A model generated the notes under the pieces. The model was given only the letters and a program-made list of their open reading frames with translations, was not told the origin of the DNA and made no database searches. DNA of 64,000 nucleotides, taken from the NCBI GenBank assembly GCA_964512695.1, contig CAZEJU010000002.1, positions 76,233 through 140,232 of the forward strand, read 5' to 3'. A program made the position numbers and the translations under genes. Source of the DNA: an uncultured Gammaproteobacteria bacterium. Its GTDB lineage: Bacteria > Patescibacteriota > Microgenomatia > Levybacterales > UBA12049. This document shows, in pieces, positions 41,402 through 63,939 of the stretch. The stretch's first letter is position 1. Every line of letters starts with the position of its first letter.

Positions 41402-41521
41402 CGATGTTTGTTTTACTTTTAAACACTATAAAACCAATATTATGAAAGTTAAGAATAGGGCTTGTAACTTTATGGGATTATGATAGAATCAGAGATACCA
41501 CCATGAAAATGGCGGTAATTT

Positions 41522-42619
41522 TTGTTGTCTATGAGTACAAAAACAAAGTTCCCAACCATTCTAAATGATGTTGTCGTAAGTGCGAAGAAACGTGGTTATA
41601 TAACCCAAGAAGAAATATTGGGTATTTTTTCGCGGCCAGAAGACCATATAGAAGAGCTTGATTCTCTTTATGACAAGCTCATGAAGTCAAATATTGATGT
41701 TTTTGAGTCTGTTGCTCAAGAACGAGAAGATCAGAAATCAATTGAAGATCTTGAAAAAGAACTAGAAGCGTTAACTGTTTTGACAGAAGGTGTTGTTTCA
41801 GATCCTGTCAGGATGTATTTAAAAGAAATTGGTCGTATCCCATTACTCACGTTTGATCAGGAAATAGAACTTGCAAAGAAAGTAGAGAAAGGTGATAAAC
41901 ACGCAAAACAGAAGTTAATTAATTCAAATCTTCGTCTTGTTGTTTCAATTGCAAAAAAATATATTGGTCGTGGCTTGACATTACTTGATCTCATTCAGGA
42001 AGGTAACCAAGGCTTAATTCGTGCAGTTGAGAAATATGACTGGAGAAGAGGATTTAAGTTTTCAACCTATGCTACCTGGTGGATTCGTCAGTCAGTAACT
42101 CGTGCAATTGCTGATCAAGCAAGAACTATCCGTATCCCAGTTCATATGGTCGAGAATATCAATCGATTTCTCCGTACCTCTCGAAAACTCATGCAAGAAC
42201 TTGGCCGTGAGCCAACACCGGAGGAAGTGGCAAAAGTACTCGGTATAGAACCTGAAAAAGCTCTTGAGATTATTAAAATATCTCAAAACCCCGCCAGTCT
42301 GGAATCCCCTGTCGGAGATGAAGAGGATAGCAAACTTGGAGATTTTATTCACGACTCAGCAGCTCCGACACTTTTTGATACAGCTTCAAAAGAGCTTCTT
42401 AAGGAGCAGGTAGATCAAGTATTACAGACACTCTCAGATAGAGAGCGGAGAGTTCTTGAGGAACGCTTTGGGTTAAAAGACGGCAGACCGAAAACGCTTG
42501 AAGAAGTAGGGCGAATGTTTGCTGTTACTCGTGAGCGTATTCGCCAGATTGAAGCTAAAGCCCTCCGGAAACTGAGACACCCTTCTCGAGGTAACAAGCT
42601 AAGAGATTACTTAGGCTAA
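41522..42619 (+). CDS. rpoD: RNA polymerase primary sigma factor
   Basis: Region 2 '[14 protein letters not shown]' and region 4.2 '[30 protein letters not shown]'. Confidence 0.9.
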
Positions 42620-44680: not shown

Positions 44681-44934
44681 ATGTGGACTGTATACGTCTT
44701 ATACAATCAGGCAAATCAAAAGATATATATTGGCGTAAGCGCTAATATCGAACAAAGATTAAAGGAGCATAATGTAAAAATAGCAAATCATTATACGATA
44801 CGGCTAAATTTTAAGGGATTTGGGTGTTAATATATAAAGAAGAAATTAATAATAAAAAAGACGCTTTGGTACGAGAAAAGCAACTTAAAAGTTTTAGAGG
44901 TAGAGAATTTATTAAAAAATACATTCCCCTGTAG
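44681..44934 (+). pseudogene. GIY-YIG (UPF0213) nuclease gene interrupted by a +1/-1 frameshift near 44825-44832, ending inside the tRNA
   Basis: Frame A reads 'MWTVYVLYNQANQKIYIGVSANIEQRLKEHN...'. Frame B reads '...IYKEEINNKKDALVREKQLKSFRGREFIKKYIPL*'. Together they reconstitute a typical about 85-aa GIY-YIG protein. Confidence 0.5.
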
Positions 44935-44996
44935 CTCAACGGTAGAGCAGGAAGCTGTTAACTTCAAGGTTCGTGGTTCGAATCCACGCGGGGGAG
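44925..44996 (+). tRNA. tRNA-Asn (anticodon GTT)
   Basis: Hand-folded cloverleaf. Acceptor TCCCCTG/CGGGGGA, D-arm GCTC-AACGGTA-GAGC, anticodon loop CTGTTAA, T-arm CGTGG-TTCGAAT-CCACG. The 5' end resembles E. coli tRNA-Asn. Confidence 0.75.
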
Positions 44997-46565
44997 CAAG
45001 TTCGTTCTTAATATAACTGCCTGTTGGTCAATTAACTCCTGGACAAGCGGAGAATAGACCGTATTAGCAATCTTTTTGTCGTGTACCTCCAGCTTCTCAA
45101 AGAAAAACCGGAGATAACTTTTTTTCAGAAAATCAGGTGCTTCTTTGTACGCTTTCGGAATATCACGGGTCAGTGCGAGTACTTCTTCCAATAAGTCGAA
45201 ATCAAATTTCCTGCTACTTTCAAGTTTTGCTAGTTCCTTATCTACATTCTTAATTTTTTCCTCAACCTCATCACGCAGTCGGCGATTAGCTTCTCTATTG
45301 AACAAAGCATTTGAAAACACGTCCTCCTCAAGAATTCTTCTCCTCCTTATCAGTCCCGCTCTTTCATTCAAATATCCTTTTCGGACTTTTGACTCCTCCT
45401 TATCTCTGTCATTCAGATACCTTCTCACTTTCGCAGTAAGTGCATCAGTGAAACCTTTTGTGAACTTAATACCTCTGAAATGACTGGCAACTTTGTTTTC
45501 AAGGTCGTCTGCCTCCACATAAGGAGCTTTGCAGGGCTTTCTTTTCTGACAATGATAGTAATGTACTGTATCCCTTTTTTTCGAATGAGCAGGGTGCGGT
45601 TCGGCGGTATATCTGAGACCGCAGTCAGCACAGAAAATAATGCCTCTTAACAGATAGTCATACTTTCTTTCTCTTATGGCGAATCCTCTGTGTTTGGCCA
45701 GTATCACCTGACACAAGTCAAAAAGCGGTTTGGATATCAAGGGTTCATGATTACCCATTCGTTCTCTGTTGTTTGTCTCCTGTTTCATCAGACCGTAATA
45801 GAAAGGATTAGTAAGAATCTGCTGAATAGTGCTGTGAGCTAAGGGTTTTCCGTTGACTGTCGTCAGTCCTTTGGTATACATGAACAGCCCGAGCCTTTTT
45901 ACTGAGTACTTGCCTGTAGCGAATCTTTTGAATACTTCTTTCATGAGTGGTCCGTGAATCGGGTCAACTTCAATGGGTAAGGGTTTTCTCGGAAGGGAAT
46001 CTATGTATTGCTGTCTCTCTGGCGTGCGTTTCTTACCCGCGATTCTACCTTCCTTGTCGATATTCAGATATCCGTAAGTTACACCAGTCGGATACCAGCC
46101 GTTATTCCATCTGGTATCTAAGCCTCGCTTTGTCTTTCTGCCTAAGTCCCGTGAGTAGAATTCATTAATTCCCGCCATGAAAGTGTCCAACAATCTTCCT
46201 TCCGGGCTTTCATCCAACATCGGCTGAACAACGGAAATTAGCCTTGTTCCTGCTTTTTTGAGCTGTTCCTTGATAAGAAAATGGTCTGTGGCATTTCTGG
46301 CGAAACGGTCAGTGTTGTAGACAATTATGGCTCCTACTTTCCTGGTGTCAATTTGTTCAAGCATTTTCAGAAACTCGGGTCGATTGGAGACTGTGGCACT
46401 TTGTCCTTCGTCTTTGAATGTTTCCAATATTTCATACTCTAATTCGTGAGCTTTCTTGGTACATATATCTGTTTGAGCTTCAATGGAGTACCCTTCCTTG
46501 GCTTGTTCCTCCGTACTTACTCTGCAGTAGATGAAACATGTTTTCTGGTCGTTATTCATATTCAT
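44964..46565 (-). mobile_element. Large serine recombinase (integrase) whose last about 11 codons are encoded by the tRNA-Asn 3' half
   Basis: N-terminal resolvase domain 'CFIYCRVSTEEQAKEGYSIEAQ', a recombinase domain, a Cys-rich zinc ribbon 'CADCGLRY...HYYHCQKRKPC', and a coiled-coil. Codon usage is distinct. Confidence 0.75.
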
Positions 46566-50014: not shown

Positions 50015-50111
50015 ACATGCGTTATTTTCAGCCTCAAAGCTGTCTGAATCTTAACACATTGTGACTGTGAGTCGCAAGACTCCCAGTCACATTCTTAGTA
50101 CATTTTGGAGT

Positions 50112-50366
50112 ATGGGACGAACTAATAAGTCATTTCCCGTAGACCAAAAAGACAAGGCGGTGTTACAGAAAAAGTTCGGTAAGAGACTCGCTGAAATAAG
50201 AACTGAGAAAGGGATCACTCAGGAAGGGTTGTCGTTTGAAACAGGGGTCGACAGGACGTATATTAGCTATATTGAGCGGGGTGAGCGAAATCCATCACTC
50301 TTCATGCTTTGGAGACTTTCAAAAGCTCTTAAGATCAGGATTAACGAGCTGACGGATTTTCAGTAA
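50112..50366 (+). CDS. XRE-family helix-turn-helix regulator, a possible controller protein
   Basis: 'LAEIRTEKGITQEGLSFETGVDRTYISYIERGERNPSL'. Confidence 0.65.
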   Translation: MGRTNKSFPVDQKDKAVLQKKFGKRLAEIRTEKGITQEGLSFETGVDRTYISYIERGERNPSLFMLWRLSKALKIRINELTDFQ

Positions 50367-50448
50367 CATTCTTCCTTAATTTCATCTTTGTCAGAAGTGT
50401 GTCCTTCTTACGGTATAATTGAGACCGGTAAGGAGTGGAGTTACTCGC

Positions 50449-50868
50449 ATGGATGTTCATACAAAAGAACAAAGAAGCTATAACATGTCACGGGTGAAGT
50501 CGAAAAATACTAAGCCTGAATTATTAATGTTTTTGTTACTCGAAGAGGCCGGATATAAGTTTGAAAAACATTATCCGATTACGGGTAAGCCCGATATCGC
50601 ATTTCCCGAACACAAGGTTGCCGTGTTCATTGATGGAGAATTCTGGCATGGTAAGGATTACAAGCAGATAAGAGATTCCATTCCGCCTTTTTGGGTCAAA
50701 AAAATAGGAGAAAATCTTAAACGGGACGGGAGAAATATGAGAAAGCTAAGAAGTGAAGGCTGGCGTATTCTGCACTTTTGGGATAAGAAAGTGGTCAAAT
50801 ATCCTGAGAGGTCACTCCGAAGAATTACGCGGTTTCTTGAGCGTGTAAGAATCTCTGACGGAAAGTAG
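50449..50868 (+). CDS. vsr: Very-short-patch repair endonuclease
   Basis: 'MDVHTKEQRSYNMSRVKSKNTKPE' and 'VAVFIDGEFWHG'. Confidence 0.8.
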   Translation: MDVHTKEQRSYNMSRVKSKNTKPELLMFLLLEEAGYKFEKHYPITGKPDIAFPEHKVAVFIDGEFWHGKDYKQIRDSIPPFWVKKIGENLKRDGRNMRKLRSEGWRILHFWDKKVVKYPERSLRRITRFLERVRISDGK

Positions 50869-51955
50869 GAACAAGTTTCTTTGTCGTTTTCAATTCATTC
50901 ATCGATTTAAGAAGAGCATCGGCGGCTCTTTTTGCAAGCAAAGGCGGAACTGCGTTTCCTATCTGTTCGGCAATCTGGCCAAAATTGCCTATGAATTTGA
51001 AATCATCAGGAAAAGTCTGAAGTCGTGCAGCTTCACGAAGAGATATTGCTCTGTTTTGTTCCGGGTGTCCGAATCTTCCCTTTGAAATCATCGCACAACC
51101 TCCTGTCATTGTAGGTGATGGTTGGTCCCACCTCATTCTTCCGTATACGTCTTTGTGTCCCTTTGTATTTCGGTGACATTCGAGGACTAACTCATCAGGC
51201 CATGAAGTTCTGTCTCCACCATCGTGAGGGGTCAACATGAGTCTTTTCAGATTGATTTCGGCGAGACTGGCGGAAGCATGCATGGCGTCATCCGGGTGTT
51301 TCTCGCCAGCCTGAATTTTGGGCAAGTCGTTGATGGCTTCTCTTACCGTATTCCAAGCTGGTAAATCATCAGAAGTTGCCGGGTCAATGTTGGTCTTAGA
51401 AGGAAAAGATAGCCTGATATCCGAATTATTAGTGCCCATAAGGACGAGCCTCTTTCTTCTCTGAGGAACGCCGTAATCGGCCGTATTCACAACGTCGTAG
51501 ACTGTCTGATACCCCAGCTCATGAAGTTTCTGCAGTATTTGAAGAAAGAGAGGTTTCCCGATTCCCGTCGCAAGCCCCGGAACGTTTTCAAGAACGAAAG
51601 CAAGCGGCTTAATTTCTTCAACAATTCTCAGGAATTCATATATCAGTTTGTTTCTCGGGTCTGTTAATCTTTGTGAGTTTCTCCTGGCACTCGAAAACCC
51701 CTGACAGGGAGGACAAGCGATGAGAACCACCTGTTTTCCGTTTTTGAATCCTCCCGCTTTCAACAGCTCCTTACCTGACAGATAAGAGATGTCTGACGGG
51801 AATACGGCACAGTCGGGAAAGTTTGCCTTGAATGATTCGGATGCGTTTTTGTCGATATCAACGGCAACTTTGATATCAAAACCAGCTTGCTGAAAGCCTA
51901 ACGCCGAACCTCCGCAACCGGAAAAAAGGTCAATTACACCCAAGTTTCCCTTCAT
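50825..51955 (-). CDS. dcm: DNA (cytosine-5)-methyltransferase
   Basis: Motif I 'DLFSGCGGSALGF', motif IV 'PPCQGFS', motif VI 'ENV'. It is convergent with vsr and overlaps it by 44 nt. Confidence 0.85.
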   Translation of the reverse strand: MKGNLGVIDLFSGCGGSALGFQQAGFDIKVAVDIDKNASESFKANFPDCAVFPSDISYLSGKELLKAGGFKNGKQVVLIACPPCQGFSSARRNSQRLTDPRNKLIYEFLRIVEEIKPLAFVLENVPGLATGIGKPLFLQILQKLHELGYQTVYDVVNTADYGVPQRRKRLVLMGTNNSDIRLSFPSKTNIDPATSDDLPAWNTVREAINDLPKIQAGEKHPDDAMHASASLAEINLKRLMLTPHDGGDRTSWPDELVLECHRNTKGHKDVYGRMRWDQPSPTMTGGCAMISKGRFGHPEQNRAISLREAARLQTFPDDFKFIGNFGQIAEQIGNAVPPLLAKRAADALLKSMNELKTTKKLVPTFRQRFLHAQETA

Positions 51956-52112
51956 GATAATAATATATCATTTTTCGCCCGGTCGCTGTCGGGGTTTTTT
52001 GAAGAGTGTATATACTCATTCATTCCGTGTTATATATTTTATAAGTGTTGACTACAGAATGAAAATATAGTATCCTTTGTTCCAGCAAATCGGTCTAAAT
52101 ACTGAAATTAAT

Positions 52113-52340
52113 ATGAAAACAGGCGAAACAAAAGGTGCGGCTTTCAAAAGGCTCGCTTCCAACAGAACGAATAACGCAATCAGGAACATCAAACTTCTGG
52201 GTAATTTGTCCAACAAACATAATTACTCCTACTCCGAAGAGGACTTCAAACGAATTTTCAACAGCGTCGAACATGAACTTAAACTGGCAAAATCGAAATT
52301 TCTTATCTCGCTGAGTAAGAGTAAGAAATTCAAACTCTGA
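52113..52340 (+). CDS. Small basic hypothetical protein, first gene of the candidate operon
   Basis: ATG at 52113. The track's 52077 start is a TTG. Confidence 0.35.
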   Translation: MKTGETKGAAFKRLASNRTNNAIRNIKLLGNLSNKHNYSYSEEDFKRIFNSVEHELKLAKSKFLISLSKSKKFKL

Positions 52341-52363
52341 AAAGTGGATAATTAATTATTAAA

Positions 52364-53014
52364 ATGAAAATGAAAAAAGATATAACATCACTGAAGCTCA
52401 CAAGACCACAGAAGATTCTCGTAACACTGTATCAACTTTCCGACGGTACTAATAAACAGGTCAGGTTCGAAGATATAGCAGTAGGCGTTTATAAGAACTT
52501 CACTTCCGATTTTCAGCTAAGAGGTTATCCTCAATACCCTGATACGGGTGATATTGTACATAAACCGCTGTATAGCGAATTGAAAAAAGGCGGATATGTA
52601 TTATCCGGCAATAAGTACTTTTCCCTTACTCCGAAAGGAATTGCGTACGCCAAAAGACTGCTCCGCGTTTCAGAGAAAGAAACCGAACCGGGTAAAACCG
52701 CTTCAGTGAAACTTACGGCAGACCAGCAGAAAGAGCTTGACAGATTGAAATCTTCAAAGGCTGTTGAGTTGTTTCTTAACGGCAAGAAAGAGGATATTCT
52801 TGATATAGACTTCTATTCCTATCTGGAAGTTACAGTGAGGACGGGTAAGAATGACTTTCTGGGAAGACTTCGCACGGTAGAAGACGCCATTAATGCTACA
52901 AAAAACAGAAGTGACACGCTGTACAAAAAGCTGAGAGAATGTCACGAGTATCTTCTTGAAAGATTCAGAGGAAACATTGATTTCGTAAGGAACAGCAAAG
53001 GAGGTAAGAGGTAA
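52364..53014 (+). CDS. Putative winged-helix DNA-binding protein, 216 aa
   Basis: 'RPQKILVTLYQLSDGTNKQVRFEDIAV...GGYVLSGNKYFSLTPKGIAYAKRL' is PadR/MarR-like. Its stop overlaps the next start. Confidence 0.4.
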   Translation: MKMKKDITSLKLTRPQKILVTLYQLSDGTNKQVRFEDIAVGVYKNFTSDFQLRGYPQYPDTGDIVHKPLYSELKKGGYVLSGNKYFSLTPKGIAYAKRLLRVSEKETEPGKTASVKLTADQQKELDRLKSSKAVELFLNGKKEDILDIDFYSYLEVTVRTGKNDFLGRLRTVEDAINATKNRSDTLYKKLRECHEYLLERFRGNIDFVRNSKGGKR

Positions 53015-54858
53015 TGGCAACGACAATACAAATGAAAATTAAGGAAGAGCAGAATGTCTATCATGACAACATTCTTGATATTTGGGGTAATGACTTCAAT
53101 TTCAGTCATGAAAAGGGTTTGGCAGAATGGCTTAAGAATTCAGTAGACGCATACCGCAGAGTCGGGGCTGCCGACAAAGACCAATACATTATCTTCCGTT
53201 TCACTGACGGTACTCAGACGACACCTCCAGTTATTGAGTGCATTGATTTCGTGGGAATGGAATTGGTTGATATTGAGAAGGCTTTCAAATGGTGGGGTGA
53301 CCCTGATGCGGCAAAAAGAGGTCAAAAAATTAAGGTATTCGGCGGTCATGGAAACGGCGGAAAGTTCTATATGCGTCAGATGTTTCTGCAATCACATTTT
53401 GTGACATACAGGCAGGGAAAAATTAACGTCTTCGGATTCAATGAAAACAGGAAGTATGGTTTTGCAGAAGGATATAAGGACAAAAAAGTTACACTTGATG
53501 AAGCCCTGAAGATAGCCGGGATAGAAAGGTCAACTATTCCCAATGCGGTTTTGCGTCAACTTGAACACGGAGAGACTGGGTTTACTGTTGTCAAAGGAAT
53601 CAGACCGAAAAAAGTCGTCGGTAGGAGTCTTCCCGTATTCAGAATATGTGACAAGCTGAAGTATCATCCTCAGGCAAGAAGTCCTCTTAAGTTCAGTAAT
53701 GTATCCGTTATCCATAACGGCAAGATAATTGCGAACGGCCTGAGAATGGAAGATATCGAACCGCTTGAAGGTTTTGAAGGACCGTTCTTTTTTGAGATTC
53801 CCGACGAAATAGATTCCATAGCGGACGGAGAAACAGGAAAGAAAGTGAATATGTATGACAAGAGGTATGGGAAAGGCAGTCTGGTATTAAAAACTTCATC
53901 TCTTCCTTTCGGTCGCGGAGGTAGAAAACCTGAGCTGAATTGTATTGATATTGTCGGTGAAATCGGTGTTATTGCTTCATATAACATGCAACAGATAGGC
54001 TTTCTCCGATACTTCCCTCAGGCTCAATATATATATGGAGAGTGCTCATGTCCCATTCTTGAAGACCCGGAATATGATTGTGTTCAGAATGACAGAGAAA
54101 GACTTGTCGATAATGAAAAAACAGCAGCTCTCCTTCAATGGATTGCAAGAAGAATAGATGAAGTGGCAGGCAAGATTGCCGATAATGAAGCGAAGGCGGA
54201 AGAAGCTGAGAATATAAGAGCTACAGACGAGTTTAATCAGATTCTCAATAAGTGGAAGAATCAGTTTATGTCGAAGCTGTTTGCTGAGGTCTTGGGCGGT
54301 ACGGGAAAAGGAGATTCTACCGGTGGTCAGGGTGACGAAGGCTCAGGTGGCGGCACGAAGAAAGAATCAAAAGACAAGGACGGATTAGGCTCAGGAGCCG
54401 GTAAGGGTGGCGGAGAAGGAGATGAGAAGAAGAAAGGTTCAAGAGCACCCCTTGTACTTTTGTCCGGACAGGAAGACCCGGAATTTCCCGGTATGCCTGT
54501 AACTTTTTCTGACAGACATTTCGCTGTGGAACAAAGACAGCAGGATGTAGACAGAGGAATATATTGGATTAATCTTGAAAAGCCGATGGCGAAGAAGATA
54601 ATCGATAAGTACGGAGTTGACTCTCCGAGGTGGAGAAACTATTTATTCCAGAGATATGTTGACATATTTACAAAGGAAACATTGTATCGTCTGGCAAAGA
54701 AGGAAGGAGGCTCTCTTACGCCCGAACAGGCTGACTACGAAATAATGCGTGTGTCATCTCTTGTATATGATAAGGCCACAATCGACCTTGAAGATTTTCT
54801 TCTGAGCGAGAGATACAATTCAGGCAAGAATAATGAAAATGAATCCGAACAATCATGA
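53014..54858 (+). CDS. GHKL/MORC-like ATPase with a Gly/Lys/Asp-rich linker
   Basis: Bergerat N-box 'AEWLKNSVDA' (ExxxNxxDA) and G2-like 'FGGHGNGGKFY'. Low-complexity stretch 'GGTGKGDSTGGQGDEGSGGGTKKESKDKDGLGSGAGKGGGEGD'. Confidence 0.55.
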   Translation: MATTIQMKIKEEQNVYHDNILDIWGNDFNFSHEKGLAEWLKNSVDAYRRVGAADKDQYIIFRFTDGTQTTPPVIECIDFVGMELVDIEKAFKWWGDPDAAKRGQKIKVFGGHGNGGKFYMRQMFLQSHFVTYRQGKINVFGFNENRKYGFAEGYKDKKVTLDEALKIAGIERSTIPNAVLRQLEHGETGFTVVKGIRPKKVVGRSLPVFRICDKLKYHPQARSPLKFSNVSVIHNGKIIANGLRMEDIEPLEGFEGPFFFEIPDEIDSIADGETGKKVNMYDKRYGKGSLVLKTSSLPFGRGGRKPELNCIDIVGEIGVIASYNMQQIGFLRYFPQAQYIYGECSCPILEDPEYDCVQNDRERLVDNEKTAALLQWIARRIDEVAGKIADNEAKAEEAENIRATDEFNQILNKWKNQFMSKLFAEVLGGTGKGDSTGGQGDEGSGGGTKKESKDKDGLGSGAGKGGGEGDEKKKGSRAPLVLLSGQEDPEFPGMPVTFSDRHFAVEQRQQDVDRGIYWINLEKPMAKKIIDKYGVDSPRWRNYLFQRYVDIFTKETLYRLAKKEGGSLTPEQADYEIMRVSSLVYDKATIDLEDFLLSERYNSGKNNENESEQS

Positions 54859-56266
54859 CAATTCCATCCTGCCCGCACAGTTATCACTGCATAACACAAC
54901 TTCGAATACCGGAGCTGTTAATTATTTGTCAGAGAATGAAATATCCCTCCCTCCTTCTCTGAGTAATGACGACTCCATTGAAGTATTGGGTCTACCAATA
55001 AGACTGGAAAACGCTCTCAAAAATTCAGGAAATATCACGACAGTCGGACAGTTAGTTAATACCGCTGACGAAAAGTTGCTGAAGTTGAGGAATCTCGGTC
55101 ATAAGTCCGTCAACTATCTTATGCAGGTGAAATTGAAGATAGATGAAAAGTTCAGTACTCTCCAAAACAGAACACCCACAGAAATAACTGAGCAAAAACA
55201 AGAGGAAAAAATTATTCCTGTCAATCAACTCCTCAATTTGTTGCTCGATAGATGCGGTAGTGAAAGAGTCAAAGAAATAGTCAAAAGACGATACGGCCTT
55301 ATGGACGGAGAAAGACAAACTCTCGAAGAAATCGGTGAGCATTACGGAGTAACTAGAGAAAGAATCAGACAGATTCAAGTTAAGGCATTGAAGAGCATGC
55401 GACATCCGATTACTACAGCCAGGAAACCGATTACGGATATTATGGAAACCATTCTGTTTCGGAATGGCGGAATAATTTCTGCTGAAGAAGCGGACACCAT
55501 AATTCCGGAAGCTTTCAGTGATACGGGTAACGACGGGAGTTCTGTGCTTGATTTACTTTGTGAATTGGGCTGGATTCAGAGCTGCAGAATCGGAGATATA
55601 GCAATATATTCACCGAAATTTGACGGTGTTTCTCTGTGCAAGTTGTCGGAAAAAATCACATTTCTGATTAAGAAACAGGATTTAGGGATTGACATTCCTT
55701 CAATATTCAAAGGTGTCAGTATGTTCAGAAGAATCAGAGACCAACGTTTCAATCCTCAGGACTTCGTTCTCAGATATTGCAGAATCGACCCTCGGATTGA
55801 AGAAATCGGACTTACATCAGCACAACCCGAAGTTTTTTTCAGGTACTATACAGTCGGTCATTTCGCTAAGAAGGGTTGGGTGGTTCTTATGACCAGAGTG
55901 TTGGAACAGGAACAAATGCCGTTACATTTCACTGAAATTGCAGATAAGGTAAATGACCTTCTGGGTAATTCTGAGAGGAGACTGGATGTAAGAAGAGCAC
56001 ATTCGATATTGATTGACGATGAAGCATTCGCTCACAGTGGTATTAACGGGACGTACGGTCTTACATCGTGGGGTTTGAGAAAAGATTCAACTGTCGAACT
56101 GGCAGAAGAGTGTCTGAGAAAAGCGGGGTTCCCGTTACATTGGAAGCAAATATTCAATTATGTGAGCAGGTATAAGAATACAAAACCGGGAAACATTACC
56201 AGTATTCTTGAAAATCATCGCAGATTCAAAAGAGTTGAATCAGGAATTTATTGGCTTAATGACTAG
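54833..56266 (+). CDS. Multi-HTH protein made of RNA-polymerase-subunit-like modules: alpha-CTD-like, sigma70 region-4-like, and two HARE-HTH-like domains
   Basis: 'IRLENALKNSGNITTVGQLVNTADEKLLKLRNLGHKSVNYL' resembles the RpoA CTD. '[41 protein letters not shown]' resembles sigma r4.2. 'PLHFTEIADKV...GTYGLTSW' and 'PLHWKQIFNYV...GIYWL' resemble HARE-HTH. It overlaps the upstream gene by 26 nt. Confidence 0.6.
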   Translation: MKMNPNNHDNSILPAQLSLHNTTSNTGAVNYLSENEISLPPSLSNDDSIEVLGLPIRLENALKNSGNITTVGQLVNTADEKLLKLRNLGHKSVNYLMQVKLKIDEKFSTLQNRTPTEITEQKQEEKIIPVNQLLNLLLDRCGSERVKEIVKRRYGLMDGERQTLEEIGEHYGVTRERIRQIQVKALKSMRHPITTARKPITDIMETILFRNGGIISAEEADTIIPEAFSDTGNDGSSVLDLLCELGWIQSCRIGDIAIYSPKFDGVSLCKLSEKITFLIKKQDLGIDIPSIFKGVSMFRRIRDQRFNPQDFVLRYCRIDPRIEEIGLTSAQPEVFFRYYTVGHFAKKGWVVLMTRVLEQEQMPLHFTEIADKVNDLLGNSERRLDVRRAHSILIDDEAFAHSGINGTYGLTSWGLRKDSTVELAEECLRKAGFPLHWKQIFNYVSRYKNTKPGNITSILENHRRFKRVESGIYWLND

Positions 56267-56274
56267 TGATATAT

Positions 56275-58680
56275 ATGGACATACAGAAAATTAAAATTAA
56301 GAGCGATTATAAATTAGCGGATATCGTTCATGATATTGAAAAAGGAATCTTGAGGATTCCTCAATTCCAGAGAGAGTTTGTGTGGGATAAGCCCCGGGTC
56401 ATCAAACTTCTGGAAAGTATCTATCTTGAATACCCGATTGGGTCTTTTTTCTTCTGGGACGCTCCGCGAAAGTATTACGACTTCTATCGTGATATCGCTG
56501 AGTTGGGTCTTCCCAAGCCCGATAGGTACGAAAAAATTGTTTTCATTCTCGACGGTCAACAGAGGCTTACTTCCCTCTATGTTACGGTCAAAGGGTTGAC
56601 GCTCTACAGTAGGGATTACAAAAAGATTTGTTTTGACCTGGATGAAAAAATATTTGTTGACAGAATACCTGACAATCAGAGATTCGTTTCTGTTTCAGAT
56701 TTACTATCGAATGACCGATTTGATGTCTATGAACGACTTACGGTTGAGCGAAAGAAATCATTCAACGAATGCTATCAGCGATTCAATAATTATCCTTTCT
56801 CAGCGATTGATGTCCGGGACAAGGAACTTGATGAGGTCTGTGACATCTTTGAGCGTATCAACCAGGGAGGACAGAGACTCAATTTGTTTGACCTCATTTC
56901 AGCAAGCACTTGGACTCCCGAGTTTGACTTAAGGTTTGCGGTCAAGAAAGAGAATGACAATCTGAAGACAAAGGGCTTCGGAGATATTGATAATGAAGTC
57001 TTTCTTCAAACACTTTCCCTTATCGCCAAGGGTTCATGTACGAGACCTGTCCAATTACAATTAAGGGCCGAAGACGTTAATAAGTTCTGGCAGGAGACAG
57101 TCAATTCAATGTCTCTGGCAATTGATTATCTGAAGAACAACTTAGGGGTGGTCAATTCGGTGTTCATTCCGTACAGAAGTATGATAGCTGTTGTTGCTTA
57201 CCTGTTCTCTGTCAACAAAGGCAGGAGTCTGAATCACGAGCAGTCAGAGCTATTGTCCCAATGGTTCTGGCAGACTACGTTTTCAGAGCGGTACGGAGCT
57301 TCAATTCTGACGTTAATGACCGAAGACAAAAAATTAATGGACAAAATAGCTTCAGGAACTGATATCAGCGTTAAGTATCCGTTTTCGTTGGATATTGATT
57401 CACTTATTCAGGTGAGAATGTATCGAAAGTCGGCTGTTAAAAACGGCATTCTGTGCCTGTTGGCTAAGAGAAACCCCAGACATTTCAAAAACAATGTCCC
57501 TCTTCTGCTCAAAGACGGATATTATTCAGATTTCAACAATTCAGAGAAACATCATATTTTTCCTAAGGCGATTGTTCAGAAGAAGTTCCCTATGGTCATG
57601 GTACATTCACTCCCAAACTTCTGTTTCATTCCTGCGGAACTTAATAAGGAGATATCAGACAAACAGCCGAGCAAGTATTTTGAAGAGTATTTGAGTATAA
57701 ACCCCGACTTTGAAGATACTCTCAGAACCCACCTGATTAAGTACGATGATTCAATCAGACAGAACGATTTCATGTCTTTTCTGGCTTCAAGAGCGGCGAT
57801 GATTCTTGAGGAAATAACGAGAGCTACCGGTTCAAAAATCAGTCGGGTAGTAGCAGATAACGTTAACAAGGCGATAGATGATACTGAGAAGAAACTGCGT
57901 GACTTCATAGATAAGCAATTATCCTTAAATAATACTGATTATTGGAAAACATCAGTACCGAGCGATGTTGTCGGAATAATGCGTCAGAGAGTCAATCAAT
58001 ATCTGTCCAAAGACCCTTCAAAGATAATCAGCGATTTCAGTTCAAGGGACTTACTCGACTTCTGTGACATTATGGATTATTCAAAAATGGTCATCTCAAA
58101 CTGGAACATATTTTCAACTTTTTTCAGGTCGAAGATTGAAACTGAGAAAAGATTTTTGAATCTGAAAGAGTTCAGAAACGCAGTCAAACATACAAGAGGA
58201 GAGATTGTTCCTTTCATTCAGAAAGAAGGAGAAGCGGCTCTGGAATGGCTATCAATCATTCTTGGTGAAGTCAGAAAAAAGGGAGAGGAAAGAGCTTCAG
58301 TTACAGAGACCGACGAACAAACCATTAACAGGGTTGAATCGGAGTTTGTCAAACATATGGTCAAAGGAATACCTCAATGGATTGAAAACGATTACCCTGA
58401 AGGAACCAGTTCAATAGTGAAGTTGGTGGGCGGTACGGGTTCTGACCATTACATAAAAACAAACAGCAGAACAGCTATCTGGTATTATTTCGCTAAACAA
58501 TGGGTGTTCATGGAGTTGAAGGATGCGACTGTTGAAGAAGCTAAATTGTTGAGGGAAAGGATTTCAAAGCCCGAGTCAATATTAGAAAAGCAAAACGGTG
58601 CCGTCAGATTTCATCTGATGAATGATAATGATTTGAAGGTGGTAACGGACATTATAAGAATCAGAGCTAATAACGGTTGA
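56275..58680 (+). CDS. GmrSD-family-like nuclease: DUF262 (ParB-like) plus DUF1524 (His-Me finger) plus a C-terminal extension with a HEPN-like RNxxxH motif
   Basis: 'IPQFQREFVWD' and 'LDGQQRLTSLYV' are DUF262 motifs. 'SEKHHIFPKAIV' is DUF1524. 'EFRNAVKHTRGE' is an Rx4H motif. ATG at 56275; the track start 56266 is a GTG. Confidence 0.65.
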   Translation: MDIQKIKIKSDYKLADIVHDIEKGILRIPQFQREFVWDKPRVIKLLESIYLEYPIGSFFFWDAPRKYYDFYRDIAELGLPKPDRYEKIVFILDGQQRLTSLYVTVKGLTLYSRDYKKICFDLDEKIFVDRIPDNQRFVSVSDLLSNDRFDVYERLTVERKKSFNECYQRFNNYPFSAIDVRDKELDEVCDIFERINQGGQRLNLFDLISASTWTPEFDLRFAVKKENDNLKTKGFGDIDNEVFLQTLSLIAKGSCTRPVQLQLRAEDVNKFWQETVNSMSLAIDYLKNNLGVVNSVFIPYRSMIAVVAYLFSVNKGRSLNHEQSELLSQWFWQTTFSERYGASILTLMTEDKKLMDKIASGTDISVKYPFSLDIDSLIQVRMYRKSAVKNGILCLLAKRNPRHFKNNVPLLLKDGYYSDFNNSEKHHIFPKAIVQKKFPMVMVHSLPNFCFIPAELNKEISDKQPSKYFEEYLSINPDFEDTLRTHLIKYDDSIRQNDFMSFLASRAAMILEEITRATGSKISRVVADNVNKAIDDTEKKLRDFIDKQLSLNNTDYWKTSVPSDVVGIMRQRVNQYLSKDPSKIISDFSSRDLLDFCDIMDYSKMVISNWNIFSTFFRSKIETEKRFLNLKEFRNAVKHTRGEIVPFIQKEGEAALEWLSIILGEVRKKGEERASVTETDEQTINRVESEFVKHMVKGIPQWIENDYPEGTSSIVKLVGGTGSDHYIKTNSRTAIWYYFAKQWVFMELKDATVEEAKLLRERISKPESILEKQNGAVRFHLMNDNDLKVVTDIIRIRANNG

Positions 58681-58882: not shown

Positions 58883-59842
58883 ATGAGTCTTATAACGAAT
58901 ATTTTACTGTACTTAATATCATTTGCAGCAATTTGGTGGGGTGCAGGTCTGATTATTCAATCAGTCGACAAGATTGCCCACAGACTAAAACTTTCTTCTT
59001 TTGCCATTTCATTTTTTGTATTGGGACTACTTACATCTATTCCGGAAACAGCAGTCAGTATCCAAGCTGTATCAGAGCATAATCCTGAAATCTTTGTCGG
59101 TACTTTGTTGGGAGGAGTGTTAGTTATTTTCTGCTTTGTAATTCCTATTTTAGCCATTTTAGGCAAGGGAATTAAAATAAATCATGATTTAGACAAGAAA
59201 ACGTTACTTCTGGCCTTGGCTGTTATGGCAACACCAAGTTTCTTAGTCATAGACCATAGAGTAACTAATCTTGAGGGATTGATAATGCTGGTCGTTTACT
59301 CCGTTCTATTTTATGTAATCCAGAAGAGGCACGGGATATTTGACAGCGAAAAAGCGGAGGTTTTACAGATTAAGGCATATTCATTTCTGGATTTACTGAA
59401 AGTCATCCTTGGTATTGCTGTAGTCTTCGTATCAAGTAGTTATATTGTTGACCAGACAATCATCTTTTCTCAGATATTAAATATTTCGACCTTTTACATA
59501 AGTATTCTGGCACTAAGTTTAGGAACAAATTTGCCTGAGTTATCTCTTGCCGTTAGGGCAATATTGGCAGGCAAGAAAGATATTGCCTTTGGTGACTATC
59601 TGGGTTCAGCTTCAGCAAACACCTTACTTTTTGGCTTTTTTACACTGATTTACGATGGTGAAGTCTTAACAACCAACAGTTTTCTAATAACATTCGGATT
59701 TATAGTGTTTGGATTAGCATTATTTTATTATTTCTCTCAATCTAAAAAGGATATTTCGATTAAGGAGGGTATCGGGCTTCTAGTAGTCTATGTCTTATTC
59801 GTGCTTTATGAACTTAGCAAAGCAACAACATTCCTGAAATAA
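58883..59842 (+). CDS. CaCA-family cation/Ca2+ exchanger membrane protein
   Basis: Two alpha-repeats: 'GLLTSIPETAVSI' and 'LGTNLPELSLAVRA'. Confidence 0.6.
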   Translation: MSLITNILLYLISFAAIWWGAGLIIQSVDKIAHRLKLSSFAISFFVLGLLTSIPETAVSIQAVSEHNPEIFVGTLLGGVLVIFCFVIPILAILGKGIKINHDLDKKTLLLALAVMATPSFLVIDHRVTNLEGLIMLVVYSVLFYVIQKRHGIFDSEKAEVLQIKAYSFLDLLKVILGIAVVFVSSSYIVDQTIIFSQILNISTFYISILALSLGTNLPELSLAVRAILAGKKDIAFGDYLGSASANTLLFGFFTLIYDGEVLTTNSFLITFGFIVFGLALFYYFSQSKKDISIKEGIGLLVVYVLFVLYELSKATTFLK

Positions 59843-60216
59843 GAATCGAAAGATAGTTTCGGGTCTAAGTATGCTTTCTTCCTCTAATCCATTCATTAAA
59901 ACTTAACTCTGATAATAGGTAGAATCTATAATAAAATCCGGCAGCCATTCTGTCTTTCAACTTTGTTTTCTTCACGAACTTCTCGAATGATATCTTCTTA
60001 AGCTGAGACATAAGATAAGTGTACCTTAGGGAGGTTTCCTACAGTACCGATTTCTGTTATTATGTCGATAAGTTTCTTGATGGAATCTTGTATATTAAGG
60101 TGTGAGGGACGGAGCATGATCTTCTTAACTTTAATATTCTAACAAACCGAGTTGGTTAGAGCCTCATGTTGATCCGTGTCACATCATTTTTACTACGAAA
60201 GGTCTATAAATACATT

Positions 60217-62634: not shown

Positions 62635-63939
62635 TTGACTCATATGGGTGAAAGTTCTTCCACCATACAAGCAAATAAAGTACGTTTTGACAGTTTAGGT
62701 TATGGATATCAAGACACTCTCCCTCACCAACGTAGGAAAGAGACTATTCTGGACTTAGTGCGGGAAGCTATTAGACCAAGAGATATTTGGCTAAACCCGA
62801 AAGATCACACACTACGCGTTAGTGAAATTGGTATAGGCAACGGTTTTTTATCAGAAGGGTATAGAAGTATATTTGAAGGTCTCCCCTTCCCGACGAGTAT
62901 CACGGGAGTTGATTTAAACTCTACAATGTTGGCAGATCTACAAAAGAAAGGAATAATTGATATGGGTGTTTTAGCTCTAGCGGAGAAACTTCCCATGGCT
63001 GCTGAATCCCAAGATTTAGTAGTTATGTCAGAAGTATTAGAACATACCCGTACACCTCGATTTCCATTAGAAGAACTATACCGAGTTCTGAAACCTAGGG
63101 GGAAGTTTGTGGGAAGTGTTCCAAATATGGCTCAACTGTGGGATAGAATTGCTATGCTGAGCGGTGATGCCCCTCATCAAGTAGCACGAAAAATTGGAGA
63201 TCCAACTTTTACCCATGAGAGTCATTTTACGGTTAACTTACTGAAAGAAGCATTAAGAAAAGCTGGATTTACAGAAATAGAGATTAAGACCAATCTGGTT
63301 CGTCTATTACGTAAAGATGATGGAACTGCTTTTCCCTTTTTGAGTGAAATTATTAAAAATACTGCACCTGGACTAGGGGACAGGTTAATATGGACCGCAA
63401 GCAAACAAGGATCACCATTATTATCTGAGGGTGGTATTCCTACTTTGTATCTGGTATCTGGATCACCTAGAACTGGTAAATCAACTTTATCTCATACATT
63501 GTCTCAAAAAAAAGATATAGATATCGTGAGTATTACTGATATAAGATCTCAGCAGACGAGTGGTGATCCTAAGTTTGTTCCTCAAGAATTGGAAGAAGCA
63601 TATGTATCTTCGGTTGATATAATAAGAGATCTTTTGCAAAGTGGACAGAGTGCTATTTGGGAAGGCACATTCAGAAGTAGAGAAAGCCGAGAAAAAATAA
63701 AATCTCTAATAAGAAGATGTCCTAGTGGCTATAGAATCATTCCCATTGAGTTGAGAGCGTCAAGTGATATTATAGCTAGACGTGTGGAAGCAACTCAAAA
63801 AGAACATTTAGATAGGGATGTGACACCGCAGAGAGCTGTGCAACTTAGCGAATCCCATCCACAGCTTCCCGGTGCTTTTGTCTATGATACATCAGCAATG
63901 TCGGTTGAAGACATTGTAGGATCAGTGCTGAAGATATAG
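62635..63939 (+). CDS. Fusion protein: class I SAM-dependent methyltransferase plus P-loop kinase/NTPase
   Basis: MTase 'VVMSEVLEHTRTP...LKPRGKFVG'. Walker A 'LVSGSPRTGKSTL'. Confidence 0.55.
   Translation: MTHMGESSSTIQANKVRFDSLGYGYQDTLPHQRRKETILDLVREAIRPRDIWLNPKDHTLRVSEIGIGNGFLSEGYRSIFEGLPFPTSITGVDLNSTMLADLQKKGIIDMGVLALAEKLPMAAESQDLVVMSEVLEHTRTPRFPLEELYRVLKPRGKFVGSVPNMAQLWDRIAMLSGDAPHQVARKIGDPTFTHESHFTVNLLKEALRKAGFTEIEIKTNLVRLLRKDDGTAFPFLSEIIKNTAPGLGDRLIWTASKQGSPLLSEGGIPTLYLVSGSPRTGKSTLSHTLSQKKDIDIVSITDIRSQQTSGDPKFVPQELEEAYVSSVDIIRDLLQSGQSAIWEGTFRSRESREKIKSLIRRCPSGYRIIPIELRASSDIIARRVEATQKEHLDRDVTPQRAVQLSESHPQLPGAFVYDTSAMSVEDIVGSVLKI

Follow-up and report, generated by a model that had tools for sequence, protein, structure and literature searches.

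A conserved MORC-like ATPase/Dcm module, probably restriction-modification-like, with an appended type IV restriction gene on a mobile bacterial island

Five consecutive genes at 52113-58680 of the window (the whole 64,000-nucleotide stretch of DNA analysed here) raise the question of whether they form a single defence system and whether such a system is new. A first-pass annotation had proposed that these co-directional genes, here called p1 to p5, are one undescribed unit in which a winged-helix protein, a GHKL ATPase and a protein resembling RNA polymerase modules are combined with a GmrSD-like nuclease. All five open reading frames do lie on the + strand, and their junctions are as tight as described: one base is common to p2 and p3, the overlap of p3 with p4 is 26 nt long, and p5 either abuts the stop of p4 or overlaps it. 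We judge it somewhat more probable than not that the locus is a composite of an unnamed MORC/Dcm-type restriction-modification (R-M)-like module and an appended type IV restriction gene. The relevant features are as follows.

44925-44997, + strand: tRNA-Asn (GTT), found with ARAGORN; integration site and left edge of the island
44964-46565, - strand: large serine recombinase of 533 aa, the island integrase (Pfam Resolvase 1e-30, Recombinase 2e-13, Zn_ribbon_recom 7e-11)
50061-50366, + strand: XRE-family HTH protein, a possible controller (Pfam HTH_3 1.6e-16)
50419-50868, + strand: Vsr-family very-short-patch (T:G mismatch) nicking endonuclease (Pfam Vsr 3.4e-25; PADLOC Vsr 4e-17)
50825-51955, - strand: C5-cytosine DNA methyltransferase, Dcm-type (Pfam DNA_methylase 1.8e-71; PADLOC MTase_II 2e-103)
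52113-52340, + strand: p1, small basic protein, 75 aa from the ATG, pI 10.3
52364-53014, + strand: p2, N-terminal winged-helix domain and all-helical C-terminal domain; obligate partner of p3
53014-54858, + strand: p3, MORC-like GHKL+S5 ATPase
54833-56266, + strand: p4, multi-HTH DNA-binding protein (Pfam; alignment to solved sigma region 4 and RpoA CTD structures)
56266 or 56275 to 58680, + strand: p5, GmrSD/BrxU-like (HEC-05-like) type IV restriction protein with a Swt1-like HEPN domain

The setting supports the view that this is a defence-type locus on a mobile, tRNA-integrated island. The island is about 14 kb long and adjoins the tRNA-Asn gene, whose 3' end is overlapped by the serine recombinase gene, and homologous recombinases occur close to the module in 14 related loci. 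Its codon usage is foreign, as had been stated: GC3 is 0.415 for nine island genes and 0.288 ± 0.029 for 37 genes outside, with no overlap between the two sets (p = 4e-6). The XRE-family HTH gene is retained only in the closest relatives (L081, L082) and lies outside the block that is syntenic with three other relatives (L003, L004, L084).

The identification of p3 as a GHKL ATPase is essentially right. Across 19 sequences with 47-81% identity its ATP-binding motifs are invariant (E38/N42, D78xxG81, G110-G116/K117 and T191) and match GHKL motifs I (ExxxN), II (DxGxG), III (the Gly-rich ATP lid) and IV (the conserved Thr). Its Bergerat fold leads into a transducer domain of the S5 fold, an arrangement shared with MutL, MORC and the ATPase subunits of type II topoisomerases. 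A long helix comes next (residues 368-427), and a disordered, Gly-rich linker (429-475) connects it to a conserved C-terminal domain (480-600), which weakly resembles a zincin-like fold and lacks its catalytic residues. The fold is MORC/SMCHD1/MutL-like, with top matches to MORC and SMCHD1 rather than MutL; the MORC-specific S5 motif GhXhhpXXRhl was not found in the p3 alignment, as read by eye. None of the 120 p3 homologues listed carries a precomputed Pfam domain. Because p3 itself is matched by no Pfam model (E <= 0.01) and a profile of its own recovers only 463 clusters (at 50% identity), p3 represents a separate sequence family.

The N-terminus of p2 is a winged-helix, in agreement with the earlier assignment. 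p1 is present at 36 loci, is kept in the Patescibacteria (CPR) and Nitrospirae versions of the module and has a strongly conserved consensus (FKRLA..RTN...LGN.SN..Y.Y). Searches of PADLOC, Pfam, NCBIfam and PHROGs gave no match for p1, p2 or p3, which bears out the claim that the core belongs to no named system. The resemblance of p4 to RNA polymerase modules is clear, with Pfam matches to RNA_pol_A_CTD (6e-12, residues 46-94) and Sigma70_r4 (2e-13, residues 143-191) and 49% identity to region 4 of the host RpoD. The RpoA CTD residues R..N and NLGxKS are conserved in p4, as is the sigma 4.2 helix TRERIRQI, which is identical to that of the host RpoD; these residues contact DNA. In the C-terminal half, a HARE-HTH match (355-380) falls under the Pfam threshold (25.4 vs 25.9 bits).

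Which of these genes belong together was judged from 80 genome loci with a p3 homologue, spanning about nine phyla, of which 42 are fully flanked (at least 5 kb on both sides). p2 and p3 are adjacent in at least 74 of the 80 loci. Partners recur at the fully flanked loci as follows: p2 at 39, Dcm at 32 (76%), a multi-HTH protein at 29, where p4 analogues have other combinations of the same modules, and Vsr at 21, a count that leaves out the Dcm-Vsr fusions of L028, L029 and L030, two of them fully flanked. Distances of p2 (r = 0.86) and Dcm (r = 0.78) correlate with those of p3 (Mantel p = 0.001), which may partly reflect shared host phylogeny. The usual gene order in most phyla is p4-p2-p3-Dcm-Vsr, with no variable gene downstream. 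The module occurs mostly in uncultured lineages, including Patescibacteria (CPR), Acidobacteriota, Verrucomicrobiota and Planctomycetota, and has 187 confirmed matches among about 186,000 species represented by one genome each. Nucleotide synteny between the window and L003, L004 and L084 extends over 50449-56254; it ends at 56187-56254, short of the p4 stop at 56266.

Dcm and Vsr, which the first-pass annotation had placed merely beside the unit, thus belong to the conserved module, and the pair is the most conserved partner of p2-p3. Dcm and p3 are often coupled in translation, and a 4-nt overlap between the Dcm start and the p3 stop is seen at many loci beyond the Patescibacteria. The catalytic motifs of Dcm are intact in the window (FSGCGG, PPCQGFS, ENV, QRR and GNAVPP), and the enzyme is probably the self-marking component of the module. 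A C5-cytosine methyltransferase, as expected of a type II R-M system, is therefore present; a cognate restriction endonuclease was not found next to it, and Pfam and PADLOC place none of the island proteins in a restriction endonuclease family, the only nucleases being Vsr and the type IV-like p5. The textbook role of Vsr is repair, not restriction. In Ignavibacteria an HNH gene takes the place of Dcm and Vsr, so these versions have no self-mark, and about one quarter of the fully flanked loci have no nearby Dcm, so methylation is perhaps not essential to p2-p3.

The claim that the unit is undescribed needs to be narrowed. Operons of this general kind, in which MORC or paraMORC GHKL ATPases are encoded with Dcm, Vsr or HNH genes, were already predicted by Iyer, Abhiman and Aravind 2008 (PMC2292703), and p1-p4 with Dcm and Vsr are best read as an unnamed variant of these R-M-like systems. 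A GHKL-nuclease fusion, paraMORC3/VcSduA, protects against phage (PMC12137116). Because no nuclease beyond Vsr or HNH was found in the core, the mechanism is one that we infer. What the data show is the make-up of the locus, its conservation, the folds of its proteins and its composite nature, whereas a role in defence and each mechanistic step are inferences. Under this composite reading, the first part of the locus (50419-56266) would be a conserved, horizontally spread R-M-like module of Dcm, usually Vsr, p1, p2, p3 and p4. Host DNA would be marked by Dcm, and DNA would be bound by p4, which is made up of promoter- and origin-recognition modules, and perhaps also by p2. p3 is predicted to dimerise and to close on DNA upon ATP binding, as MORC and MutL do, with DNA that lacks the Dcm mark as its target. 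It may then activate a nickase, either Vsr or, in some lineages, HNH, in the way that MutL stimulates Vsr, or alternatively clamp DNA and block its use; Vsr may simply mend T:G damage caused by the methylase.

A different outcome, which we consider unlikely, is nuclease-free, MORC-based silencing, in which p4 and its analogues would load a p2-p3 clamp onto unmarked DNA and block transcription or replication of the invader. Sigma region 4 would read the -35 element, the alpha-CTD would read UP elements and a DnaA C-terminal domain would read DnaA boxes. If true, this would make the module a bacterial forerunner of the link between MORC proteins and cytosine methylation in eukaryotes. As a decoy variant, the RNA polymerase and DnaA modules of p4 may mimic host targets of phage takeover factors and trigger the ATPase when hit.

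Slightly less probable still is a methylation and repair cassette with no defence role, in which an orphan Dcm marks or protects the element, Vsr corrects T:G mismatches, and a MutL-like p3, helped by p2 and p4, stimulates Vsr in hosts that possibly lack MutL and MutS. Vsr is indeed seen only together with Dcm, no restriction endonuclease was found, and a functional MutL-Vsr interaction in E. coli is cited in PMC2292703. However, Vsr is absent from about one quarter to one third of Dcm-bearing loci, in some loci p2-p3 are accompanied by neither Dcm nor Vsr, or by an HNH nuclease in place of these, and the fold of p3 matches MORC and SMCHD1 over MutL. The company that the module keeps also points away from repair: known or candidate defence genes lie at its 3' end, and MZA, Shedu (at a few loci), OLD and toxin-antitoxin genes are near it in some loci. 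A four-gene apparatus would, moreover, seem large for a 150-aa nickase.

p5 is appended cargo outside the core module. It encodes a recognizable type IV restriction protein, with an N-terminal DUF262 (ParB-like) domain that carries DGQQR (ILDGQQRLTSL in translation), as had been reported, and matches to GmrSD_N/DUF262 (1.3e-31, residues 17-213), HEPN_Swt1 (8e-5), PADLOC HEC-05 (1e-42) and BrxU (PDB 7P9K, 2e-10). Of the second domain assigned to it, DUF1524 with EKHHIFP, only the HNH-like HHIFP motif is seen: EKHHIFP...N...N resembles DHIYP of BrxU and EHICP of HEC-06, whereas Pfam detects nothing in residues 361-545 at E <= 1 and no DUF1524 in the 120 p5 homologues listed. That all five genes are one obligate system, with the GHKL ATPase and the RNA polymerase-module protein sensing or processing DNA and the GmrSD-like nuclease as effector, is very improbable. 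Such a system would fit the translational coupling of p4 and p5, the lack of a terminator-like site between them on the + strand, the preservation of the arrangement in three 94%-identical relatives and a core without an obvious nuclease of its own. Yet p5 is retained only in those relatives; a p5 relative is near a p3 homologue at one of the 80 loci, on the other side there, and is missing at the other 79, so the co-localisation on which the first-pass annotation had staked its unit is not borne out for p5. The break in synteny falls at the p4/p5 junction, and the place of p5 is taken by a PDC-M36A-like gene in a relative with 88% identity. In all four cases sampled, the p5 homologue (49-79% identity) is at the end of a Type I R-M operon and p1-p4 are absent, and GmrSD/BrxU-type enzymes have been reported as stand-alone defence genes. 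p5 was accordingly rejected as the core nuclease on the grounds of synteny and its independent Type I R-M contexts, and the proposed four-part unit with a GmrSD-like nuclease does not hold. In the composite reading, the second part of the locus (56266-58680) would be an independent, modification-dependent GmrSD/BrxU-type gene with an extra HEPN domain, co-transcribed from a variable 3' slot, and p5 would cover phages with hypermodified cytosine that escape a methylation-based system.

The slot after p4 holds GmrSD, a PDC-M36A-like gene, an ABC ATPase, Fic or trypsin-like peptidases at different loci, and in L002 an OLD-type nuclease lies one gene further downstream. GmrSD-like genes embedded in defence systems are a published pattern that p5 matches (bioRxiv 10.1101/2024.01.29.577857), and p5 is an embedded defence gene as described by Payne et al. 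2024: a variable, same-orientation gene that closes a conserved multi-gene system and whose homologues occur in further host systems. The variable slot with its frequent defence genes, the transcription-factor modules of p4 and the GHKL-type kinase and repressor pairs found upstream of immune operons (CapK/CapS-like; PMC13373217) might suggest that p1-p4 regulate the downstream gene, with p2 and p4 as transcription factors and p3 as a signal-sensing enzyme, but there is little chance of this given that most phyla have p4-p2-p3-Dcm-Vsr without such a gene, that p3 is a 600-aa MORC-like GHKL+S5 protein and not a small anti-sigma-type kinase, that CapS is a STAS protein unlike p2, and that Dcm linkage is much tighter than that of any cargo gene.

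p2-p3 and their partners are a discrete, widely transferred module that annotation libraries do not recognise. Validation would add a methylation-linked defence system to the catalogue and provide a tractable bacterial model for the coupling of a MORC-type ATPase to cytosine methylation and sequence-specific adaptors, which is relevant to how MORC-based silencing arose in eukaryotes. In practical terms, genes that overlap tightly at the 3' end of a module like this one can be cargo in their own right.

Among known systems, the closest are the MORC/paraMORC R-M operons. Like the module, they combine a GHKL+S5 ATPase, whose ATP-binding motifs are intact and which has a conserved C-terminal extension of its own, with cytosine methylases, Vsr-superfamily endonucleases, HNH genes in some lineages, and a patchy, laterally mobile distribution. 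The module differs from them in lacking both a superfamily II helicase and a nuclease partner of the restriction fold, and p1, p2 and a multi-HTH protein (alpha-CTD, sigma 4 or DnaA-C) were not found in the passages of PMC2292703 consulted.

The MZA anti-phage system, for which PADLOC and NCBIfam models exist, is similar in that its sigma-70-family protein MzaA has a sigma-70 region-4-like domain, and p4 matches MzaA models over region 4. A MutL-like GHKL ATPase is also part of MZA, and the protective effect of the system against phage has been demonstrated in E. coli. The match of p4 to the NCBIfam MzaA model NF041931 scores 56.7 bits, where the cutoff is 800, with only region 4 aligned, and the PADLOC MzaA match covers 49 residues; since no PADLOC model matches p3, p3 is not an MzaB match. 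A Dcm methylase and Vsr are present here instead, and the module is distinct from MZA because a strong MzaA match lies beside it at two related loci. PglW of type 2 BREX resembles p4 in having an RNA polymerase alpha-CTD-like domain followed by an HTH/winged-helix array, and p4 matches PglW models at about positions 795-980. Type 2 BREX is also a methylation-based exclusion system without an obvious classical restriction nuclease. p4 differs from PglW in lacking a kinase, a NERD nuclease and an inactive STAND domain, and the locus has no other BREX genes.

p5 is like GmrSD, BrxU and HEC-05 in being a single polypeptide with an N-terminal DUF262 domain and an HNH-like motif, HHIFP where BrxU has DHIYP, and like embedded GmrSD genes in lying, in the same orientation, at one end of a methylation-based system; such placements are reported for BREX, Hma and Type I R-M. 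It differs from GmrSD/BrxU in having no Pfam DUF1524 call and about 200 aa more, with the Swt1-like HEPN domain, in which R-x4-H is present, and an additional region towards the C-terminus; an architecture of ParB (DUF262), HNH and Swt1-like HEPN has already been described (PMC3710099). The best structural matches to p3 are eukaryotic MORC and SMCHD1, over about 280-294 residues at 10-14% identity. p3 has neither the CW zinc finger nor the SMC hinge of these proteins, its C-terminal domain is unrelated and it has a dedicated winged-helix partner; it shares with them the long helix after the ATPase module and, through its own module, a link to cytosine methylation.

The ORF listing agrees with the five co-directional genes (p1-p5) described by the first-pass annotation, and the junctions claimed for them hold: the last base of p2 is the first of p3 (TAATG), there is a 26-nt overlap between p3 and p4, and p5 begins where the p4 stop codon ends. 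The Dcm and Vsr genes and p1-p4 are treated here as a core module (50419-56266), with p5 as the gene at its 3' end.

Features of the island (window positions, strand, identity)
44925-44997, tRNA-Asn, start of the island
44964-46565, - strand, large serine recombinase gene, overlapping the tRNA-Asn 3' end
50061-50366, XRE-family HTH gene, upstream of p1-p5
50419-50868, Vsr, upstream of p1-p5
50825-51955, - strand, Dcm-type methylase, directly upstream of p1-p5
52113-52340, + strand, p1, 75 aa counted from ATG (the ORF as listed begins at TTG 52077)
52364-53014, + strand, p2, 216 aa
53014-54858, + strand, p3, 614 aa
54833-56266, + strand, p4, 477 aa
56266-58680, + strand, p5, 804 aa from GTG (next ATG at 56275)

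The genetic context is mobile. A tRNA-bounded island with foreign codon usage had been proposed, and both the tRNA-Asn edge and a GC3 shift bear this out: mean GC3 is 0.415 for the nine long genes that run from the recombinase gene through p5 versus 0.288 +/- 0.029 for 37 other window genes, with zero overlap between the two sets (Mann-Whitney p = 4e-6), and it falls beyond 58680. The island genes are clearly of foreign origin. The tRNA-Asn 3' end encodes, on the opposite strand, the C-terminal codons of the recombinase (44925-46565), so the island seems to bring with it, or restore, a portion of the tRNA gene. Homologues point to a Microgenomates-type Patescibacteria (CPR) host (e.g., Roizmanbacteria, Daviesbacteria, Woesebacteria), whose dnaG (primase, 590 aa) and rpoD (short primary sigma factor, 365 aa) lie just upstream of the island (39629-42619). 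Scans for promoters, terminators and operators near the operon gave no signal above chance. An ORF at 62635-63939 (434 aa), with an apparent N-terminal SAM-dependent methyltransferase-like part and C-terminal P-loop kinase-like part (GSPRTGKST) in translation, has no relation to p1-p5.

Pfam, NCBIfam, PADLOC and PHROGs contain no usable match to p1, p2 or p3, and p3 matched no solved structure by sequence, with only low-complexity noise among PDB sequences. Comparison of an AlphaFold model of p3 (built on 19 relatives, pLDDT 78) with known structures matches it to GHKL+S5 ATPases.

Structural matches of the p3 model (protein, score, length)
MORC3, 18.3, 280
SMCHD1, 16.8, 294
MORC2, 16.3, 294
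MutL, 14.6, 262
Hsp90 and topoisomerase VI-B, about 14, -

All four ATP-binding motifs (E38/N42, D78xxG81, G110-K117, T191) are invariant, so the GHKL/MORC-like assignment of p3 was right. A p3-family profile matches only 463 clusters among 1.84 billion representatives; the family is discrete at the sequence level and does not merge into the wider GHKL continuum. Relatives were found in no phage genome and in six viral contigs among 2.9 million. Among annotated records, a search for named relatives returned one distant 'hypothetical protein', an 800-aa family member on the conjugative Ensifer adhaerens plasmid pCTYH.Ch1_3 (locus L089: 8878-11280), which is flanked by 75-aa and 229-aa genes likewise annotated as hypothetical. 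A subgroup of 740-800 aa (P0395, P0402 and similar family members) has an inserted bacterial Ig-like domain (Big_2) after the long helix and ahead of the C-terminal domain. Proteins matching only the C-terminal domain were sought as a clue to its function; they proved either to be fragments or to have no other domains than Ig-like Big_2. The description of p1 as small and basic is accurate (pI 10.3); profile comparison gave zero relationship between p1 and a Solirubrobacterales RHH+Mrr_N protein, p2, C4 or C6.

RNA-polymerase-like modules had also been seen in p4, and Pfam finds both an RNAP alpha-CTD (6e-12) and sigma-70 region 4 (2e-13). The R..N and NLGxKS positions known from B. subtilis RpoA are preserved in the alpha-CTD, and region 4 shares 49% identity with its counterpart in host RpoD (41522-42619), with helix TRERIRQI unchanged. 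We take these conserved residues to be the DNA-contacting ones, which makes DNA binding by p4 plausible. Sigma region 2 is absent from p4, which is thus not a true sigma factor. Longer relatives have two or three alpha-CTD copies. A HARE-HTH match in the p4 C-terminus falls just under the Pfam threshold and has zero support from PDB sequences.

The neighbourhood of p3 is conserved across distant lineages. One genome per species was scanned, which gave 187 confirmed p3 matches, and 80 loci were kept from many Patescibacteria lineages, Acidobacteriota, Nitrospirae, Verrucomicrobiota, Planctomycetota, Elusimicrobia, Myxococcota/other 'Deltaproteobacteria', Solirubrobacterales and Ignavibacteria. 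ORFs were called in these loci and queried with the five window proteins, and neighbours were clustered. p2 immediately precedes p3 in at least 74 of the 80 loci, and p1 occurs in 36 (Patescibacteria, Nitrospirae). Thirty-four loci encode an adjacent p4-like protein, downstream of p3 or upstream of p2; another 27 have in its position a different multi-HTH protein that combines a DnaA C-terminal domain with sigma region 4 and zinc ribbons and, in some cases, alpha-CTD repeats. Of the remaining neighbour clusters, Dcm methylase (55 loci) and Vsr (34 loci) are the two largest.

Occurrence in the 42 fully flanked loci (at least 5 kb on each side)
p2, 39/42
Dcm, 32/42
multi-HTH protein, 29/42
p1, 22/42
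Vsr, 21/42 (Dcm-Vsr fusions left out)

Dcm-Vsr fusions of 560-570 aa directly follow p3 in three Planctomycetota and Myxococcota loci (L028:11861-13549, L029:11971-13686, L030:11887-13593), with L028 and L030 fully flanked. The order p4-p2-p3-Dcm-Vsr is found in many non-Patescibacteria loci, with a 4-nt overlap between the p3 stop and the Dcm start. In pairwise comparisons, p3 distances track the p2 (r = 0.86), Dcm (0.78) and Vsr (0.59) distances (Mantel p = 0.001 for each), a correlation that may owe something to shared host ancestry. Solirubrobacterales have a protein with SeqA_N-like and Mrr_N domains in place of p1. In Ignavibacteria an HNH nuclease gene after p3 replaces Dcm/Vsr. Its product has a 180-aa N-terminal domain in L068, L073, L074 and L076, where an SRA- or PUA-like reader domain was suspected, searched for and not found. 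A PIN-domain toxin gene and a small AbrB/SpoVT-like gene, resembling a VapBC pair, lie directly upstream of the p4-like gene in six Ignavibacteria loci (L068, L071, L074, L076, L079, L080). Among 130 flanking genes compared with PADLOC, two match MzaA strongly (best 2e-72); they lie a few kb from p2-p3 in L007 (5188-6267) and L016 (5813-7498), adjoining a conserved gene of about 600 aa, which suggests that a true MZA system shares the defence island.

What the analysis establishes for the core is its composition, conservation pattern, folds and mobile setting, together with ATPase and methylase motifs that are intact; by analogy with related systems a mechanism can be proposed. Dcm would mark self DNA, p4 and p2 would bind DNA, and ATP binding would close a p3 dimer on it; p3 might then activate a nickase (Vsr or HNH), in the way that MutL stimulates Vsr, or block use of the DNA. 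The effector is the weak point, since Vsr is not universal and p1-p4 contain no other recognisable nuclease; a nuclease-free exclusion mechanism of a BREX-like or MORC-like kind is a more novel and less probable reading. Dcm is missing from about a quarter of the fully flanked loci and the HNH versions lack a methylase, so the p2-p3-p4 trio may work without a methyl mark in some lineages. That the core is instead a methylation-plus-repair cassette would suit the Vsr-MutL link, but this is unlikely given the loci without Vsr or Dcm, the HNH variants and the defence-gene cargo.

That cargo includes p5. Of the DUF262 and DUF1524 domains assigned to p5, the first stands (GmrSD_N/DUF262 with DGQQR, 1e-31; PADLOC HEC-05 1e-42; BrxU 2e-10), whereas DUF1524 has no Pfam match at E <= 1 in p5, nor does Pfam find it in the p5 homologues listed; there is only an HHIFP motif resembling the nuclease motif (DHIYP/EHICP) that has been described in BrxU and HEC-06 (bioRxiv 10.1101/2024.01.29.577857). 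In addition, p5 contains a Swt1-like HEPN domain that has an R-x4-H motif, and a ParB(DUF262)+HNH+Swt1-like HEPN architecture was listed by Anantharaman et al. 2013 (PMC3710099). The family of about 800 aa is widespread. A p5 relative occurs in 1 of the 80 p3 loci, there on the other side, so the co-localisation proposed as a check fails for p5. p5 is kept in three metagenomic contigs with a 94%-identical p3; in a contig at 88% identity it is replaced by a DUF8370/DUF8371 protein (L084:13286-14707; PADLOC candidate PDC-M36A, 2e-34). Elsewhere the gene just after the multi-HTH gene encodes an ABC ATPase, Fic, trypsin-like peptidases or unrelated products, and in L002 an OLD-type nuclease lies one gene further downstream. 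Nucleotide alignments of L003, L004 and L084 to the window run from about 50449 to 56187-56254, ending at the p4/p5 junction. All four sampled p5 homologues (49-79% identity) occupy the 3' end of a Type I R-M operon, with OLD, Shedu or SMC-like genes next to them and p1-p4 absent. GmrSD-like genes have been reported in this kind of setting, embedded in Hma, BREX and Type I R-M systems (bioRxiv 10.1101/2024.01.29.577857).

From its variable position, the synteny break and the separate R-M contexts, p5 is independent cargo, probably co-transcribed with the core in this window. The claim that p1-p5 form one single system is contradicted by this distribution and is very improbable. Should the post-p4 position be a collecting point for defence genes, PDC-M36A would gain support as one of them. 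A second variable spot lies just beyond p5: in the close relatives L081-L083 (about 80% nucleotide identity), the match to the window breaks off at 58637 and resumes at 59935-60117; in between lie two small genes (82 and 242 aa), where the window instead encodes a 319-aa membrane protein (58883-59842). A regulator module controlling downstream cargo, as for CapK/CapS (PMC13373217), fits the Patescibacteria gene order and that order only, and we reject it as the main reading and give it little credence because the p4-p2-p3-Dcm-Vsr order has no cargo.

The core is thus best regarded as a good candidate new defence system with independent cargo, and it offers a bacterial MORC-methylation model. 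It is unnamed in Pfam, NCBIfam, PADLOC, PHROGs and the literature searched. It is a new family of a kind already known; p5 belongs to a known kind, and the headline combination of p1-p5 is an accident of cargo placement on a theme with precedent. PADLOC and NCBIfam hold a sigma-like MzaA model for the 'MZA anti-phage system', and paraMORC3/VcSduA, a GHKL-nuclease fusion, protects against phage (PMC12137116). The core has its parallel in MORC/paraMORC operons that also encode cytosine methylases, Vsr and HNH products and that Iyer, Abhiman and Aravind 2008 (PMC2292703) predicted to be restriction-modification systems.
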